A model generated the notes under the pieces. The model saw only the letters and a list, made by a program, of their open reading frames with translations, did not search any database and was not told the origin of the DNA. A stretch of DNA of 5,473 bases from a virus (taxonomy: Duplodnaviria; Heunggongvirae; Uroviricota; Caudoviricetes): the IMG/VR virus record IMGVR_UViG_2778261058_000013, one strand, 5' to 3'. The translations under genes were made by a program, and so were the position numbers. This document shows, piece after piece, positions 1 to 5,473 of the stretch (position 1 is the first letter of the stretch; every line of letters starts with the position of its first letter).

Positions 1-1401
1 CAGGCGGACAAGCTGCCCCGCCTTGACTTTTATCCCCTCCGTTTTGAGGAATGTCTCAACGTCCATTTCTCCGGTGCTGATTGCCACCGTGCGCCAGTGT
101 TTGATCTCCCTGTTGCCGCCGTCCTTTGCCCCCTGTAATTTCCCGGAACCGTTAAACAGCGTATAGGCTGACGTGGACACCTCCCGCGCGTTTCCGGCCT
201 GGCCTATTTCATCCAGGGGTAAAAGCCCGTCATTGTGTGCCTCTGCTTCGTTGGCGATACCTAACGCTGTGCCGTACCAGGTCAGCCGCTGCGCGTCCGG
301 CTCTCCCCATAAACTTGATGCGATGTTCTGCGTTGTGGTCTTACCTGCCGATGACTGTTCGAAAAGATGTACCCCGAAGCCGTCAGCGCCCACCAGCCCG
401 ATTAATGGTGCAGATAACGATACCGCCACACCCAGCATCATGGACGGATTACCACCAGCCAGCCGCGCAACGGTATCGCGCCAGCCCTCCGCCGTTCCTG
501 CCACGGAATAACCATTAACAGCAGCCGTTTTTCCGGTAAACAGGACTGGCTTTTCGCAATCACCAATGACCGAACCGTCCGGCATGATGTACGCGCCAAA
601 ATGCCAGCCCGTTGTTGTGCTTAACTGCCATTCCTCATGGTTTCCGCTTAACTGCATCCAGTCAGCCAGGATAGCCCTGTATTTGCCGTTGGTTGTCACG
701 TTCAGGCCGTGGTCTTTCAGCAACCGCCAGCCGTCACGGTCGCCAATGCCCCCGCACGGAACCGCCATTGTGATGACTTCATGGTTTGCGGGTTTCTTCC
801 AGCGCATCACGCGGTAATGCTCTTTGCCGATTGTCCCCGTTCCCAGTAGTTCAAGCGGGGAACATAACCACGTCTCAGGCCGGATAATTTCGCCTGACTG
901 CTTGTCAACTTTTGGCGTTACCCAGAAAACACCATCGGCGCGGCTTTCAACGCGGGGCTTTAATTCATCATCGCTATAGCTTCCTGTGGCTTTTTTCTTT
1001 AAGGGCAACACCAGACTTTCCCCGCGCTCGTATTCGTCTTTCAGTCGGGCAAGCTGTGGTGTCCAGTCCTCCAGTAAATCGCCGTTCTCGTCACAAAAAC
1101 AGGCTTCCTTAACACCAGCCACTGCCAGCAGGGTTTCAATCTGTAGCGCCAGTTTGTCATCCAGTTTTCCGGCACGTCTGACGATGGCGCGTGACCGACC
1201 CTCATCCACAATACGCAGGTTTTCCAGATTACCCAGGTCACGCCGTCCGAGATAAACAGGTGGTATTTTGTCGCCGCGCTTTCTGGCTTCTCCGCCCTGC
1301 ATGTAATGCTCTGCGTGGCTGTATGCGTCATCCCCCGCAAAAATCACTGCATCCTCGCCTTTATCTTTCGGTAACAGTTTTACGTTCGGCGCCAGTTTCA
1401 T
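1..1401 (-). CDS. Replication protein, primase/helicase-like with a P-loop NTPase domain (possibly DUF927/toprim-type); 3'-partial, continues beyond position 1
   Basis: The minus strand frame from 1401 to 1 has no stop codon (467 codons, checked by hand); it is absent from the ORF track because no stop falls in the window. ATG 1401..1399 overlaps the stop of the upstream gene (ATGA), with GGGGAAAGG just upstream. Translation begins MKLAPNVKLLPKDKGEDAVIFAGDDAYSHAEHYMQGGEARKRGDK and contains a Walker A-like SSAGKTT (about 334..354) and Walker B-like LLPLDEIG (about 202..225). The plus-strand ORFs across this span are antisense shadows. Confidence 0.8.
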   Translation of the reverse strand, partial: MKLAPNVKLLPKDKGEDAVIFAGDDAYSHAEHYMQGGEARKRGDKIPPVYLGRRDLGNLENLRIVDEGRSRAIVRRAGKLDDKLALQIETLLAVAGVKEACFCDENGDLLEDWTPQLARLKDEYERGESLVLPLKKKATGSYSDDELKPRVESRADGVFWVTPKVDKQSGEIIRPETWLCSPLELLGTGTIGKEHYRVMRWKKPANHEVITMAVPCGGIGDRDGWRLLKDHGLNVTTNGKYRAILADWMQLSGNHEEWQLSTTTGWHFGAYIMPDGSVIGDCEKPVLFTGKTAAVNGYSVAGTAEGWRDTVARLAGGNPSMMLGVAVSLSAPLIGLVGADGFGVHLFEQSSAGKTTTQNIASSLWGEPDAQRLTWYGTALGIANEAEAHNDGLLPLDEIGQAGNAREVSTSAYTLFNGSGKLQGAKDGGNREIKHWRTVAISTGEMDVETFLKTEGIKVKAGQLVRL

Positions 1402-1712
1402 TTTGCCTTTCCCCGTTCACGAATAATTTCACGTACTGCCTTAATGCGTTCCATACCTGTAACGCGCATGATTCTGTCGATGTCGCTTAAGTTCGCTGGT
1501 GGTGCTTTGCTTACCAGGGTGAATTCACTCTCAAAACGCATATGAGACGACACGCAGGGATGCGCATAACCTTCGCGGATATAAGTCACGCGAAAATCGT
1601 CAACGGTTTTTATCGTTATTCGTCCGCCGTATTTATCTTTGAAAATATCGTCGGGGCGGATTTCAGGCCGAGGGAGGCCGCTGGCAGTAAAGCCAGAATT
1701 TTTCTTTTTCAT
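1398..1712 (-). CDS. Hypothetical protein (104 aa), translationally coupled to the downstream primase-like gene
   Basis: ORF-track ORF with ATG at 1712..1710 preceded by GAGGAA and an 8-nt spacer; starts MKKK; its TGA stop overlaps the primase ATG (ATGA at 1398..1401). No family recognised. Confidence 0.6.
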   Translation of the reverse strand: MKKKNSGFTASGLPRPEIRPDDIFKDKYGGRITIKTVDDFRVTYIREGYAHPCVSSHMRFESEFTLVSKAPPANLSDIDRIMRVTGMERIKAVREIIRERGKAK

Positions 1713-1782
1713 GGTTTTTATTCCTCTGCGCGGGTCTTGTCGTGCATTTCCATAACCGCGTTTAATTCATCAATAACCGGGG

Positions 1783-1926
1783 TTAACAGAGTGCTGAAAG
1801 CAGAAAGTAAATACCCCCCCGCTCGGTGTTATTTTCGGTTAATTCATCCAGTACCGTTTTTAATTCAAGCGCCCTGATTAATGCATTCTCAGAATGAATA
1901 AGAACATCGAAAGGGATTTTATCCAT
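1783..1926 (-). CDS. Hypothetical small protein (47 aa as written), possibly frameshift-truncated at a G7 tract; one extra G would give 79 aa ending at 1718
   Basis: ATG 1926..1924 preceded by GGAGGA with an 8-nt spacer; translation MDKIPFDVLIHSENALIRALELKTVLDELTENNTERGGIYFLLSALC. A C7 run at 1814..1820 (G7 on the coding strand) lies inside the ORF. Below the ORF-track length cut-off. Confidence 0.35.
   Translation of the reverse strand: MDKIPFDVLIHSENALIRALELKTVLDELTENNTERGGIYFLLSALC
1814..1820 (-). repeat. Homopolymeric G7 tract (C7 on plus strand) inside a small ORF
   Basis: Read directly: ataCCCCCCCgctcgg on the plus strand. Confidence 0.95.
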
Positions 1927-2152
1927 GGCTTACATCCTCCGGGAATTTTCTTCTGTAACGCGCCTCTGCAACATATTCCGCATAGTCCGACGCAATATTG
2001 AGAATCTCCACACCCTCTGACCTGTAGCCACTGGTACTGATAAGAAAAAATGCGGCTTTCATCATGTCGGCAACGCATAACAACGCATCGCCTGTATGTT
2101 CCGGTGCGCCATCAAATTCCTGTTTCAGGGCATTAAAACGATCATCACGCAT
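1919..2152 (-). CDS. Hypothetical protein (77 aa from ATG 2152; the ORF-track frame extends to 2179); may be the C-terminal part of a fused roughly 155-aa protein
   Basis: Frame open 2179..1919. ATG at 2152..2150 sits 2 nt downstream of the G8 tract, which could act as a G-rich ribosome-binding site, and overlaps the TGA of the upstream ORF. Translation MRDDRFNALKQEFDGAPEHTGDALL...EDVSHG. Start choice is uncertain. Confidence 0.4.
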   Translation of the reverse strand: MRDDRFNALKQEFDGAPEHTGDALLCVADMMKAAFFLISTSGYRSEGVEILNIASDYAEYVAEARYRRKFPEDVSHG

Positions 2153-2384
2153 AACCCCCCCCATTTTCACAATCAGCAATCAGGATGGCTTTAGCCTCAT
2201 TCAGTGCCATATCAGCACTAAATTGCATAACAGCCAGTGAGTGAGGAACGAAAGCCCCGGCATATTCTGTTTCGCTGGTGGCGTGCTTATGTGCCCTGTC
2301 CGCGATAACAGAAATATCAATCAGCGCGTGCATTAGCGTTTTGATGGCTTCGGCGGCTGCGTCCGGCGTGTTTTTATTGCACAT
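2145..2384 (-). CDS. Hypothetical protein (79 aa)
   Basis: ORF-track ORF; ATG 2384..2382 preceded by AGGGGG with a 6-nt spacer and overlapping the 3' end of the upstream 68-aa ORF; translation MCNKNTPDAAAEAIKTLMHALIDISVIADRAHKH...CENGGGYA, ending just after the G8 tract. Confidence 0.5.
   Translation of the reverse strand: MCNKNTPDAAAEAIKTLMHALIDISVIADRAHKHATSETEYAGAFVPHSLAVMQFSADMALNEAKAILIADCENGGGYA
2155..2162 (-). repeat. Homopolymeric G8 tract (C8 on plus strand) at the junction of two small ORFs
   Basis: Read directly: ataaCCCCCCCCatttt on the plus strand; on the coding strand it encodes the GGG near the C-terminus of the 79-aa ORF. Confidence 0.95.
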
Positions 2385-2580
2385 GGTGCACCCCCTGGCG
2401 AATACGGGCGGCGAATACCATCACGCAGCCAGCCGGTGATTGCTGACGGGCTTCCTGTTCGCTGGTGGCCTCAATGGTAATCATGCGCGGTTGTGCCGTG
2501 CTCAGAGCGATAAAACGCCAGATATATTTATTCAGGTTGTGCGAGTCCCGCCCTTGCGGGTGTGTGGTATGATTTAACAT
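2374..2580 (-). CDS. Hypothetical protein (68 aa), first gene of the minus-strand small-ORF operon
   Basis: Internal ATG at 2580..2578 of the long ORF-track frame 2374..3492, preceded by GAGGT with a 5-nt spacer; translation MLNHTTHPQGRDSHNLNKYIWRFIALSTAQPRMITIEATSEQEARQQSPAGCVMVFAARIRQGVHHVQ. The longer upstream extension is rejected. Confidence 0.45.
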   Translation of the reverse strand: MLNHTTHPQGRDSHNLNKYIWRFIALSTAQPRMITIEATSEQEARQQSPAGCVMVFAARIRQGVHHVQ

Positions 2581-2676
2581 AGCTACCTCGATACTGTTGC
2601 TATCGTTGGTGGTTAGAAGCCCCGTTACTGCTCCTACAGTGCGGGGTTTCGTCGTTTCTGTGCCTTGCATTAACAA

Positions 2677-2759
2677 GGTGTAAGACACAATGTAAAATAC
2701 AAGTGTCTTACACGTCAAGCCTTCAAAATAATTTTTTTTCGTGTATATTGTCTTACACC
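2677..2759. promoter_or_regulatory. Divergent promoter region with three copies of a 12-bp operator-like motif (core TGTCTTACAC)
   Basis: GGTGTAAGACAC at 2677..2688 (inverted) and GTGTCTTACACG at 2703..2714 form a palindrome with a 14-bp spacer; a third copy TTGTCTTACACC lies at 2748..2759. On the plus strand a putative -35 TTCAAA (2722..2727) and -10 TATATT (2744..2749) are 16 bp apart; on the minus strand a putative -35 TTGACG (2718..2713) is followed by TACATT. A T8 run sits at 2732..2739. Confidence 0.5.
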
Positions 2760-2779
2760 AACAACATAAGGAGTTAGAC

Positions 2780-2959
2780 ATGGCAACAGGTCCAAAGAAT
2801 GCAAAATCACAATCTGTAACTGCACGTATTGCCCATGAAATTATTGAAGGCATGGAAAACGTGAAAGAAGAAGGCGAAAGTACAGGGCAGTTTATAAGTG
2901 CAGCCATGCGCGGCGAGATCAAACGCCGCCAGCGTCGCAAGGCCAAAGAGCAGGAGTAA
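2780..2959 (+). CDS. Small basic protein (59 aa), possible ribbon-helix-helix-type DNA-binding regulator
   Basis: ATG at 2780 preceded by a consensus AAGGAG (2768..2773) with a 6-nt spacer; translation MATGPKNAKSQSVTARIAHEIIEGMENVKEEGESTGQFISAAMRGEIKRRQRRKAKEQE. The ORF-track start at GTG 2741 lies inside the promoter and is less likely. The RHH assignment is a guess from the N-terminal pattern. Confidence 0.6.
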   Translation: MATGPKNAKSQSVTARIAHEIIEGMENVKEEGESTGQFISAAMRGEIKRRQRRKAKEQE

Positions 2960-3016
2960 CCATCACTAGCGCCGTGGAGTGATGAACTGTGGCGCACAGG
3001 GTTACAGGTATATACG

Positions 3017-3214
3017 ATGACTGACAAATCATTAAAGAAATTATCCTCATCCAGGAAAAAACAACGCAAAAATGCGGTAAGCGAACAAGAACAGGAAAGA
3101 TTCGCACCTTGTTCGTTTGCTCTTGAGAAATTCCTTAAAGAGTACAGGCGCACAAAAATGGGATCGCATGCCTGGAAAACATCGCAGCATGGCGATACTA
3201 AAGAGCAGGAATAG
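3017..3214 (+). CDS. Hypothetical small basic protein (65 aa)
   Basis: ORF-track ORF; ATG 3017 with a weak AGGT 7 nt upstream; lysine/arginine-rich N-terminus; same strand as and immediately downstream of the 2780..2959 gene. Confidence 0.4.
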   Translation: MTDKSLKKLSSSRKKQRKNAVSEQEQERFAPCSFALEKFLKEYRRTKMGSHAWKTSQHGDTKEQE

Positions 3215-3317
3215 CCCACCAGCAAGCCAGCACACTGATCACATTGCCCACCAGCCGCAAATGTGGCATTGTTGGCTATGCTCATGCGTTGGGGATAACG
3301 TGTAGCTTGTGTCGAGG

Positions 3318-3346
3318 GGCCACCGTAGCGGGTGGCCTTTGTTTTG
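3318..3346 (+). terminator. Rho-independent terminator for the plus-strand small-gene pair
   Basis: Perfect 7-bp stem GGCCACC (3318..3324) / GGTGGCC (3331..3337) with 6-nt loop GTAGCG, followed by TTTGTTTTG. Confidence 0.5.
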
Positions 3347-3362
3347 CCTGTTATCCGGCAAT

Positions 3363-3392
3363 TGTGGCGCTTCGCCACACGGTTGATATAAT
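3363..3392 (+). promoter_or_regulatory. Candidate promoter: perfect palindrome next to a consensus -10 hexamer
   Basis: 7-bp inverted repeat TGTGGCG (3363..3369) / CGCCACA (3373..3379) with loop CTT, followed by consensus TATAAT at 3387..3392; weak -35 TTGTGG at 3362..3367 with a 19-bp spacer. Confidence 0.3.
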
Positions 3393-3441
3393 TCCCCTGC
3401 ACTGATCCATTTTTTTCGCAGCAGGTTAATTGTTCGCAAGG

Positions 3442-3466
3442 GCGCTCCGGCAACGGGGCGCTTTTT
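3442..3466 (+). terminator. Rho-independent terminator-like hairpin on the plus strand
   Basis: Stem GCGCTCC (3442..3448) / GGGGCGC (3455..3461), seven pairs including one G-U wobble in RNA, loop GGCAAC, followed by TTTTTGTT. The minus strand has no U-tract after the stem. Confidence 0.45.
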
Positions 3467-3496
3467 GTTATGTTCATCGCGTTACGCCTCACACCA

Positions 3497-3703
3497 TTAC
3501 GCAGCCGTTCCGCGCGCTTCTTCCTCGCGCTCTTTCAGCCAGGCCAGCACTTCATCTTCATACCAGCCAACACGGCGCAGACCGATTTTGAAGCCTTTCG
3601 GGAATTTTCCGGCGTTGATCATGTCCTGTAGCGAACTGTCTGCCTTGATGCGCAGAATATTTTTTACTTCCTGACGGGTAAGAATTTTTCTGATTACTTC
3701 CAT
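3497..3703 (-). CDS. alpA: AlpA/Vis-family phage transcriptional regulator (excisionase-like helix-turn-helix protein)
   Basis: ORF-track ORF; ATG 3703..3701 preceded by GAGGT with an 8-nt spacer; translation MEVIRKILTRQEVKNILRIKADSSLQDMINAGKFPKGFKIGLRRVGWYEDEVLAWLKEREEEARGTAA has the size (68 aa) and pattern of the AlpA family, and the gene sits in the expected position beside the integrase. Confidence 0.85.
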   Translation of the reverse strand: MEVIRKILTRQEVKNILRIKADSSLQDMINAGKFPKGFKIGLRRVGWYEDEVLAWLKEREEEARGTAA

Positions 3704-3767
3704 CGTGTTTTACCTCGTTAATACGGCGTATTCCGGTGATAAATACGGTAAAACAGGGCAGGGCGGG

Positions 3768-3810
3768 AAAAACAGTACTCACCGTTTTAAAACGGTACTC
3801 ACTGTTTTTT
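3768..3810. promoter_or_regulatory. Two tandem 20-bp near-palindromic repeats upstream of alpA (candidate regulator-binding sites)
   Basis: AAAACAGTACTCACCGTTTT (3769..3788) and AAAACGGTACTCACTGTTTT (3789..3808), 18/20 identical; each unit has partial dyad symmetry (AAAACNGT...ACNGTTTT). A possible degenerate third copy lies near 3741..3760. Confidence 0.4.
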
Positions 3811-3835
3811 ATCTCATTGATTACGCTTTCTTTTT

Positions 3836-3868
3836 GCAAAAAAATAGCGACCGCAAGGGGCCGCTATT
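3836..3868 (-). terminator. Rho-independent terminator after the 80-aa ORF and integrase transcription unit
   Basis: Stem AATAGCG (3843..3849) / CGCTATT (3862..3868) with a GC-rich interior; on the minus strand the stem is followed by a U7 tract (A-run 3838..3844 on plus); begins 5 nt past the stop at 3873. Confidence 0.55.
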
Positions 3869-3872
3869 GTGA

Positions 3873-4115
3873 TTACCGTTTCCACTTCTTAGGTCGCCCA
3901 CCACATTTAAGGCTGGTGGGCCTCAGCACCTTGTCGATGCTTTCAGCCAGATTTTTCGATGCGCCACGCGAGCGTAAAAAACTGACTACCTCGTGTTTTG
4001 TGGGGGCTGTTGATTTGTCTTCCGGATCGTATGTTGACCAGAATTCACGATTTGCCATTAACGCCAGTTGCAGCCCTTCGCCGCAAGCAGGGGATACCTT
4101 TTCATTGAAAAACAC
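3873..4115 (-). CDS. Hypothetical small protein (80 aa) with a basic GRPKKWKR C-terminus, between the integrase and alpA
   Basis: ORF-track ORF with a GTG start at 4115..4113 preceded by a consensus AAGGAG (4129..4124) and an 8-nt spacer; an alternative internal ATG gives MANREFWSTYDPEDK. Translation ends ...LKCGGRPKKWKR. Confidence 0.5.
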   Translation of the reverse strand: MFFNEKVSPACGEGLQLALMANREFWSTYDPEDKSTAPTKHEVVSFLRSRGASKNLAESIDKVLRPTSLKCGGRPKKWKR

Positions 4116-4171
4116 CTGGATAGCTCCTTGAATTTCATGATTTGGGTGACTCCTCTCTGTATTGGGTGGGT

Positions 4172-4210
4172 TGTGGCGATTATACGATGGTTTAGCATGG
4201 TTTGCATCGC
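4172..4210 (-). promoter_or_regulatory. Candidate sigma70 promoter for the 80-aa ORF
   Basis: Consensus TATAAT on the minus strand (plus 4184..4179) with a weak -35 ATGCAA 17 bp upstream; lies in the 116-bp gap between the integrase stop and the ORF's ribosome-binding site. Confidence 0.3.
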
Positions 4211-4231
4211 TTTTACTGGTTTTTTGTACAG

Positions 4232-5473
4232 TTACACGGCACGGATACCCCTTTTACCACTGGCTATGGTCACTCCGGTAGCTGCGGCCTCTACAAATTC
4301 CCCCCACCAGCGCATAAGCACCACGCGCTTTTCCAGGTAGTTACTTCTGTTATATGCCCGCCTTACCTCGTTCGTGTCCACGTGTGCGAGTGCGGCCTCG
4401 ATTACGTCCGGCTCGAATCCTTCCTCGTTCGCTGCTGTACTGAATATGGCGCGTAATCCGTGAGACACCAGCACACCAGCGTATCCCATCCGGCGCAATG
4501 CAGCGTTAGCGGTCTGGCTGCTCATTGGCAGCATTGGATTTTTAAGGCTGGGAAAAACATGTTCCCTGTGTGCGCTGATTGGCTTCATGGTTTCCAGTAC
4601 AGCCATAGCCTGACCGCAAAGGGGGATCACGTGGTCACGGCGCATCTTCATGCGTCCGGCTGGAATCGTCCATGTTTCGGCATCGAGATCTATTTCTTCC
4701 CAGCGTGCGGCGGCTGCTTCGGCTGGGCGTGCTACGGTCAGCAGTTGCCACTCAATCAGCAATCTGGTTTGCCGTTCTATGCTGGCGACCGATAAATCGT
4801 GCATTAGCTGCGGTAGCTGTTCCGGTCGGATGGTTGGCATGTGCTTTTTGGTGGGTGAGGGGAATGCCTTGCGGACGTTCGCGGCGGTGTTGATGTCAAT
4901 CAGCCCACTGTTGGCAGCAAAATCCATCACTTCATTGATGCGTTGTAAAACGCGTTTCAGGGTTTCCAGGTTGCCGCGTGCTTTAATGGGGGTGAGTATC
5001 TCAACAAAGCGGCGAGCTGTGAGGGTATCTATTGGCGTGTTTCCGATGTACGGGAATACGTATTTTTCCAGGGATCGCCAGATATCCTTAATCGTGTTGT
5101 AAGCCAGATTCTGGCCTTTTTTCATCTCGTACCAGTCCGAGGCAACTTTTTCGAACGTGTTGCCCTTTTTCCGACTCTCTGCTTCACGTTTCCGGCGTTC
5201 GTGGTCCTGTGGGTCAACTCCCTTCGCTATGAGTGACCTGTATTCATTCCGTCGTTCTCTGGCATCGGACAGGGAAACATCATTCAGCGATCCGAGGCTG
5301 ATGATAGTCCGTTTTTTATCTGCCGGGCGGTAGTACGTAAAACGCCAGATTTTTGATCCGGAGGGTTTCACCAGAAGAAATAATCCTCCACCATCCTGCA
5401 GGGTGTATTCCTTTTCCCCTGGTCGTGCGTTTTTGATCTCCGTAATGGTTAGTGGGGTGGTTTTTCGTGCCAT
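4232..5473 (-). CDS. int: Site-specific tyrosine recombinase, P4-type phage integrase (413 aa, complete)
   Basis: ORF-track ORF; ATG at the window edge (5473..5471). The N-terminus MARKTTPLTITEIKNARPGEKEYTLQDGGGLFLLVKPSGSKIWRFTYY is typical of the arm-binding domain of P4-like integrases; the C-terminal domain has the HxLR motif (VSHGLRAIF) and a catalytic-Tyr context (RRAYNRSNYLEKR). Confidence 0.95.
   Translation of the reverse strand: MARKTTPLTITEIKNARPGEKEYTLQDGGGLFLLVKPSGSKIWRFTYYRPADKKRTIISLGSLNDVSLSDARERRNEYRSLIAKGVDPQDHERRKREAESRKKGNTFEKVASDWYEMKKGQNLAYNTIKDIWRSLEKYVFPYIGNTPIDTLTARRFVEILTPIKARGNLETLKRVLQRINEVMDFAANSGLIDINTAANVRKAFPSPTKKHMPTIRPEQLPQLMHDLSVASIERQTRLLIEWQLLTVARPAEAAAARWEEIDLDAETWTIPAGRMKMRRDHVIPLCGQAMAVLETMKPISAHREHVFPSLKNPMLPMSSQTANAALRRMGYAGVLVSHGLRAIFSTAANEEGFEPDVIEAALAHVDTNEVRRAYNRSNYLEKRVVLMRWWGEFVEAAATGVTIASGKRGIRAV

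Follow-up and report, generated by a model that had tools for sequence, protein, structure and literature searches.

Why does a small gene in a compact operon end 70 nt short of its neighbour, when a single base added to the run of seven G residues within it would carry the frame almost to the next start codon? The question is posed by the window, the 5,473-nt stretch of viral DNA (Caudoviricetes) analysed here, which is IMG/VR record IMGVR_UViG_2778261058_000013. An original prediction, made from these letters, offered three answers: a homopolymer sequencing error, a frameshift mutation or slipped-strand phase variation. We compared the tract (T1) and the gene that contains it (gene 3) with their relatives on other islands.

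Gene content of the island

The genes of interest all lie on the minus strand and form a single co-directional block (Table 1). Judged from its genes alone, the island resembles a phage-inducible chromosomal island (PICI), a satellite of E. coli phages. The core components listed for PICIs include an integrase, a regulator, a primase and a small terminase (PMC10085698). The integrase lies at one end of the island, and its homologue in the closest genome abuts tRNA-Pro. The regulation module, for which an alpA, merR or stl homologue is expected, is represented by AlpA (PF05930), and the primase-replicase by the DUF927 protein (PF06048, phrog_1139). Packaging genes lie outside the window.

The closest complete genome covers 94% of the window at 97.9% identity, and the best draft loci are 96-97% identical. 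Its island spans ~14 kb between tRNA-Pro/yejM and yejO and carries, beyond the block seen in the window, genes for SSB, ProQ, PerC, DUF1441 and a small terminase subunit; no capsid-morphogenesis gene was identified in it. The integrase, AlpA-family regulator and primase/replicase, together with the small terminase and the tRNA-adjacent position of the ~14-kb island in the closest genome, are features shared with the PICIs of Gram-negative bacteria. The island differs from them in its hypervariable G tracts, of which no description for PICIs was found in the literature searched. A P4-like satellite, defined by the psu-delta-sid operon together with alpA, epsilon and alpha (PMC10085698), was considered and rejected: psu, sid and delta are not annotated in the closest complete island, which shares with P4 only the AlpA and primase analogues.

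Table 1. Positions of the features discussed, in the numbering of the window
Feature	Position	Strand	Evidence or remark
Tyrosine integrase, 413 aa	4232..5473	-	ORF list; end of island
80-aa ORF	3873..4115	-	ORF list
AlpA-family regulator	3497..3703	-	Pfam PF05930 (Phage_AlpA), E = 4.5e-08
Icd-like / ash-family ORF, upstream of gene 1	~2374..2640	-	phrog_6196, E = 1.3e-55
Gene 1, 79 aa in the G8 state of T2	2145..2384	-	phrog_5146 and first half of phrog_2512
Poly-G tract T2, G8 in the window	2155..2162	-	Junction of genes 1 and 2
Gene 2, 77 aa from the ATG at 2152	1919..2152	-	phrog_24341 and second half of phrog_2512
Gene 3, truncated 47-aa ORF (putative 'off' allele)	1783..1926	-	ORF list, translation
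Poly-G tract T1, G7 in the window	1814..1820	-	C7 on the plus strand
C-terminal remainder of gene 3 (YLLSAF...TRAEE and TAA), +1 G frame	1718..1813	-	Translation
DUF4222 gene, next in the operon	1398..1712	-	Pfam PF13973, E = 7.6e-18; homologues annotated likewise
DUF927 primase/replicase, N-terminal 467 codons, runs off the window	1..1401	-	PF06048, E = 3.1e-46; phrog_1139 (DNA primase)

The junctions of this operon other than that after gene 3 overlap, as had been noted (ATGA, ATGGATAA and ATGCGTGA). The ATGA joins the DUF4222 and DUF927 genes, and gene 2, annotated in homologues as a 234-nt CDS, overlaps gene 3 by 8 nt. The overlap at 2145-2152 is itself set by T2, a point absent from the original prediction. 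The DUF4222 gene has its own ribosome-binding site, GAGGA, within the end of gene 3.

Two features lie upstream of this cassette. A 72-aa ORF at 2741-2959, between the AlpA and Icd-like genes, is the only plus-strand gene in the block; it matches phrog_949, and its homologues are annotated as YlcI/YnfO family. A 372-aa, GTG-started minus-strand ORF at 2374-3492 belongs to a known family (Icd-like/ash, phrog_6196) only in its last ~88 codons, the RefSeq name for homologues of this part being 'host cell division inhibitor Icd-like protein'. This ORF is probably not one real gene, because the equivalent stretch of the closest genome is annotated as an 'ash family protein' pseudogene fragment.

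A G tract within gene 3

Gene 3 starts with an ATG at 1926 directly preceded by GGAGGA, and it stops at 1785-1783 after 47 codons, which leaves 70 nt (1782-1713) before the DUF4222 ATG at 1712. The sequence thus confirms the good ribosome-binding site, the early stop and the gap that were originally described. T1 occupies codons 36-39, and the 47-aa product consists of native residues 1-38 followed by the out-of-frame tail IYFLLSALC. Translation with an extra G in 1814..1820 extends the frame as predicted to the stop at 1718..1720. The restored ORF encodes 69 aa, ten fewer than the ~79 first estimated, and its TAA at 1720-1718 is separated from the DUF4222 ATG by 5 nt rather than 6.

The restored frame reads ...GGYLLSAFSTLLTPVIDELNAVMEMHDKTRAEE up to its stop codon (given also as YLLSAFSTLLTPVIDELNAVMEMHDKTRAEE). 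A TAA closes this frame just 5' of the tract, and no ATG, GTG or TTG occurs in it before the internal AVMEM, so that the downstream frame has no start of its own, as the original prediction had it. Separate translation of the C-terminal part of gene 3 was rejected, there being no internal start after T1, unlike the ATG that follows T2. T1 therefore has the form expected of a phase-variable locus, in which a repeat within the coding region would alter expression by changing its length.

The G7 run alone is not improbable. The window contains three matches, against a mean of 0.77 per window in dinucleotide-preserving shuffles, of which 15 of 200 reach three. The significance of the tract comes from comparison with homologues.

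Length of T1 among related islands

We aligned 22 loci, comprising 15 complete E. coli genomes, five metagenome contigs, one IMG/VR contig and the window, and added seven IMG/VR loci retrieved by frame-independent peptide patterns, which gives 29 loci assessed at the DNA level regardless of frame. T1 ranges over G5, G6, G7, G8, G9 and G10 in these 29 loci and falls in all three frames. Gene 3 is in frame in nine loci and out of frame in 20, where about one third in frame is expected by chance; the loci are phylogenetically non-independent, so that this fraction is only indicative. The first 22 loci alone give P(X <= 4 | n = 22, p = 1/3) = 0.10, and among them each of the wrong frames accounts for nine.

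Protein sequences imply an even wider range, from G4 to G13. Full-length proteins with RG, RGG or RGGG have 68, 69 and 70 aa and correspond to G5, G8 and G11, and truncated forms of 46-52 aa carry one to four glycines followed by either IYFLLSALC or F(T/I)FCFQHSVNPGY. RefSeq annotation of gene 3 in the 15 complete E. coli genomes varies in the same way, with CDSs of 210/207 nt, CDSs of 144/156/159 nt, or none.

The tract changes faster than its surroundings. All indel columns in the 670 nt aligned from the gene 1 ATG to the DUF4222 ATG lie within T1 or T2, and repeat length is polymorphic among close strains where the flanks are not. The window and three other islands (L001, L002 and L014) show 0 differences in 397 flanking nt, and their T1 reads G7, G8, G8 without the following T, and G7, respectively. 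Over 4119 nt, the metagenome contigs L011 and L012 differ solely by G10 in the former and G9 in the latter. Part of the public assemblies derive from long reads, in which homopolymer errors are common, so that at G8 and above the tract may look more variable than it is.

A search for the exact pattern in species-representative genomes, one per species, returned nothing, and a protein-pattern scan of the same collection gave no confirmed relative. Because both scans of this one-genome-per-species collection were negative, gene 3 appears to be restricted to Escherichia-type islands.

Strand slippage as the probable cause

We consider it likely, from the comparison of homologous sequences, that T1 is a homopolymer that mutates by strand slippage and so gives reversible on and off alleles of gene 3. 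Changes restricted to the tract, gains as well as losses, the use of all three frames, variation on identical backgrounds and a lack of secondary decay together form the signature of slipped-strand mutation. Among the three answers originally offered, slipped-strand phase variation is thus the one favoured by the G5-G10 range and by the islands with identical flanks.

The proposed mechanism would run as follows. An uninterrupted G run encodes glycines beside the predicted hairpin turn of the gene 3 protein, and this homopolymer would change in length at a rate far above that of change in the DNA around it, presumably through slipped-strand mispairing as it is replicated, so that related islands come to sit in any of the three frames. 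Tracts of G5, G8 or G11 would yield a full-length protein with one, two or three glycines, and other lengths would yield 46-52-aa products with either of two short out-of-frame tails. Off alleles should revert easily, which would keep the C-terminal coding part from decaying. The intact downstream frame of 28/28 off alleles and the spread of G5-G10 over three frames are consistent with such reversibility, in a comparison made across loci. Reversion within a lineage would be expected on this mechanism, and any benefit might lie, for example, in heterogeneity of satellite behaviour.

A different account would place the correction after DNA replication. RNA polymerase slippage, or -1 ribosomal frameshifting on G_GGG_GGU, could make the length of the DNA tract nearly neutral. 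The zero-frame tract does form a formal X_XXY_YYZ heptamer, and expression that disregards frame would permit the combination of near-random frames with an intact C-terminal frame. RNA polymerase is known to slip on long homopolymers, and slippage on this G run could add some full-length product from off alleles; efficient transcriptional slippage in E. coli, however, is documented mainly for A/T runs rather than G runs. The off alleles divide evenly (9 and 9) between two shifts of opposite direction, so that one programmed shift does not fit them all, and some off alleles offer only G5-G6 or an interrupted run. No stable RNA structure is predicted downstream of T1 (folding of 1822-1713, z = +0.77 relative to shuffles). 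A programmed -1 frameshift site was accordingly rejected, as tract length and shift direction vary among homologues and a downstream stimulatory structure is absent, and we regard recoding in general as unlikely.

Still less probable is an error of sequencing or assembly, by which the source would truly carry G8 and the G7 of the window would be a homopolymer miscall. Homopolymers of 7 or more are error-prone on several sequencing platforms, L001 carries G8 between flanks identical to those of the window, and the tract-only difference between the two metagenome contigs identical over 4.1 kb could reflect a choice of the assembler. The exact 47-aa protein is nevertheless found on 88 public contigs (NCBI, Logan and ENA assemblies) from independent sources, and PGAP annotates this ORF as WP_237764167.1. 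Ten sites that encode it were read at the DNA level; in nine of them G7 precedes a T, in the tenth G8 precedes an A, and the islands of these ten sites are 3-9% diverged from the window in flanking DNA and carry different replication modules. L002/L028 (ETEC4090), where G8 is directly followed by ATTT, encodes the same 47-aa protein as the window from different DNA. Off alleles also exist with tracts that are not error-prone, namely G6 in L004 and L005 and the interrupted G5, CTGGGGG, in the food-metagenome contigs L010 and L013 (whose NODE/cov names are SPAdes-style), and the in-frame G5, G8 and G11 alleles show real length variation. Since the identical truncated form is widespread, a sequencing error is unnecessary to explain the window.

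Homologues with G8 and a longer protein had been predicted and were found. The annotated G8 homologue WP_169000751.1 has 69 aa and ends 5 nt 5' of DUF4222, and the exact restored 69-aa sequence occurs on 164 public contigs. Relatives with the short 47-aa form and the same 70-nt gap, which would have spoken against the original prediction, exist as well, on the 88 contigs, but the 69-aa G8 form coexists with them. As both forms are widespread, the tract is length-polymorphic and not the site of a one-off error.

Conservation of the gene 3 protein

If gene 3 were dispensable, the frameshift could be an ordinary inactivation caught before decay, with neither reversibility nor function. The 20/29 DNA-level loci that are out of frame would agree with such one-way pseudogenisation, as would the annotation of the protein. 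No Pfam family matches genes 1-3, their PHROGs are families of unknown function only, and the sole PHROG match of gene 3 is phrog_2196, also of unknown function. However, a second lesion was found in 0/28 off alleles. In each of these 28 the C-terminal frame stays open and shows no more than two residue variants, and its 31 codons are nearly invariant. The indels, moreover, are confined to the tracts, go in both directions and take many lengths on near-identical backgrounds.

Constraint on the protein also extends beyond the loci that carry the tract. Paralogues of 75 aa with 50-58% identity, devoid of any G run, occur on hundreds of contigs, so that the family is conserved down to 50% identity. 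In the family alignment, which includes these paralogues, 20 columns are invariant, and eight of the 20 fall in the C-terminal half. The motif TLLxPVIxEL is kept in the 75-aa paralogues and also in a distant 77-aa paralogue, in the latter through seven codon changes that are all synonymous. Inactivation on the way to decay is, in our estimate, about as improbable as a sequencing error.

An AlphaFold2 model of the gene 3 protein is a helical hairpin of two helices (H6-32 and H36-68) with a mean pLDDT of 87.4. A Foldseek search of the PDB with this model gave only generic two-helix matches, the best at E = 0.6. In the model, the glycines encoded by the tract lie at the start of helix 2, beside the turn, where one to three residues could be tolerable. 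From this conservation, the full-length protein of 68-70 residues appears to be the functional form of gene 3, and the G7 of the window an out-of-frame allele of a real, conserved gene.

That the 47-aa product is the intended one and the 70 nt downstream an untranslated spacer is highly improbable, common as this form is and annotated by PGAP, for the spacer in the shifted frame encodes a segment conserved family-wide, including in paralogues without the G run, and the short tail is conserved DNA read in another frame, a different tail being equally frequent.

Two further G tracts, one of them in sister islands

T2 lies 340 nt upstream of T1, within the last codons of gene 1 and 2 nt 5' of the gene 2 ATG, and has lengths of G7-G11 in homologous loci. 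With G8 (and G11), genes 1 and 2 are split into proteins of 79 (80) and 77 aa whose genes overlap by ATGCGTGA; with G9 they are split into 86 and 77 aa; with G7 or G10 they are fused into one protein of 154 or 155 aa. Such fusions, with 154, 155 or 156 aa, are abundant, and PHROGs contains the fused family phrog_2512 in addition to the split families. Slippage in T2 would likewise make genes 1 and 2 alternate between a single fused product and a pair of proteins. The two tracts vary independently in length, T1 = G7 co-occurring with T2 = 7, 8, 9, 10 and 11. Given its position 2 nt before the start codon, the T2 run may also act as the ribosome-binding site of gene 2.

A third tract, T3, is found in sister islands. 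There the G-rich ribosome-binding site CAGGGGGTGAGTC just 5' of the ATG of the 75-aa paralogue is expanded to G7/G8/G9 in six loci (L047, L053, L054, L055, L058 and L078, at ~1488-1497), where it overlaps the last codons of the Icd-like gene. The equivalent site of the window, at ~2393-2397, is G5. No other G or C runs of at least 7 were found in the window, in the loci that bear T1 and T2 or in ~17 kb of chromosomal flank; beyond T1 and T2, the only such runs are those of T3, at the equivalent gene junction in the paralogue islands.

Selection or tolerance

Adaptive phase variation is only a possible reading of these data, because a dispensable gene with a mutational hot spot would also be in frame about one third of the time. 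The switching may either be selected, as in a contingency locus, or reflect no more than a hot spot that is tolerated, in genes with no work to do in the integrated state of the island. The maintenance of uninterrupted G runs across diverged alleles and the presence of two or three tracts in neighbouring genes point towards selection; the in-frame fraction close to one third points towards neutrality. Mismatch repair is efficient in E. coli, and classical homopolymer contingency loci are, to our knowledge, untypical of this species.

The tracts have much in common with the poly-G/C contingency loci of Campylobacter, Neisseria, Haemophilus and Bordetella: the poly-G run is intragenic, its length varies among close relatives, the frame is switched on and off, several tracts occur per element and the downstream frame is preserved. 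The host here, in contrast, is E. coli, a species with functional mismatch repair and no reputation for homopolymer phase variation. Whereas those loci concern surface or restriction-modification genes, gene 3 encodes a small, cytoplasmic-looking helical protein on a phage satellite.

Mobile elements offer two further parallels. The neuO O-acetyltransferase gene of the E. coli K1 prophage CUS-3 undergoes heptanucleotide-repeat phase variation with a surface phenotype. It resembles the switch proposed here in its repeat-mediated translational on/off control and in its place on an integrated mobile element of E. coli, and differs in that its repeat is 7 nt long instead of a homopolymer and its surface phenotype is known. 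Hypermutable poly-G tracts have reportedly been described in Campylobacter phages by Sorensen et al. in 2021 (Cell Rep 35:109214). According to the title of that work, the tracts lie, as here, on a mobile viral element and not in core host genes, and create subpopulations; they affect structural/receptor-binding genes of virulent phages with a poly-G-rich host, unlike the present tracts, which lie in early-operon genes of an integrated satellite. A phase-variation review cites the Campylobacter-phage tracts and mentions E. coli only for inversion and methylation switches (PMC11868660). A limited full-text literature search, directed at phase variation through poly-G or homopolymer runs in prophages of E. 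coli, PICIs and satellites, did not return a description of this locus.

We suggest, tentatively and with more doubt than confidence, that T1, T2 and the T3 of sister islands act together as a genuine contingency system in a phage satellite of E. coli. If so, stochastic and reversible frameshifts would generate island subpopulations in which gene 3 takes one of three states (full-length, or truncated with either tail), as does the pair of genes 1 and 2 (fused, or split in two ways). The coupling of translation into the DUF4222-primase replication module may vary among these subpopulations too, and the outcome could be bet-hedging with respect to host toxicity, interference or the exploitation of helpers. 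Homopolymer-based phase variation would then be described for the first time in a phage satellite, and E. coli would gain an example of something rare in that species. Switching of this kind is generally credited to a small number of pathogens with small genomes. That the early operon of a common E. coli satellite family has two or three such tracts suggests that mobile elements may bring their own contingency loci to a host otherwise without them.

The tracts also explain the inconsistent annotation of the region (proteins of 47, 51 and 69 aa, fusions of 154/155 aa, or none), and recognising them prevents false calls of pseudogenes or new genes. Recoding of the glycines would allow alleles locked on or off, a route to the roles of the uncharacterised genes between alpA and the primase.

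Mosaicism of the island family

The small-gene cassette is followed by one of two replication genes, a DUF927 primase like that of the window or a helicase of ~470 aa of the RepA/AAA_25 type, in a comparison of the genes downstream of DUF4222 in L004, L006-L009, L018, L019, L021, L024 and L031. As the cassette occurs with two replication genes, the replication module is exchangeable in this island family. In E. coli ETEC4090 (L002/L028, positions 3600-4887) the DUF927 gene is annotated as frameshifted and is ~830 nt shorter than that of ETEC4085.

The small-gene region itself (~1700-2400, alignment columns 1-700) is a mosaic with two or more allelic modules per segment. The modules are joined by short, near-invariant stretches: the sequences on either side of T2, and the segment made up of the C-terminal coding part of gene 3 and the start of DUF4222. 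These stretches look like recombination linkers, and both G tracts lie at or beside them.
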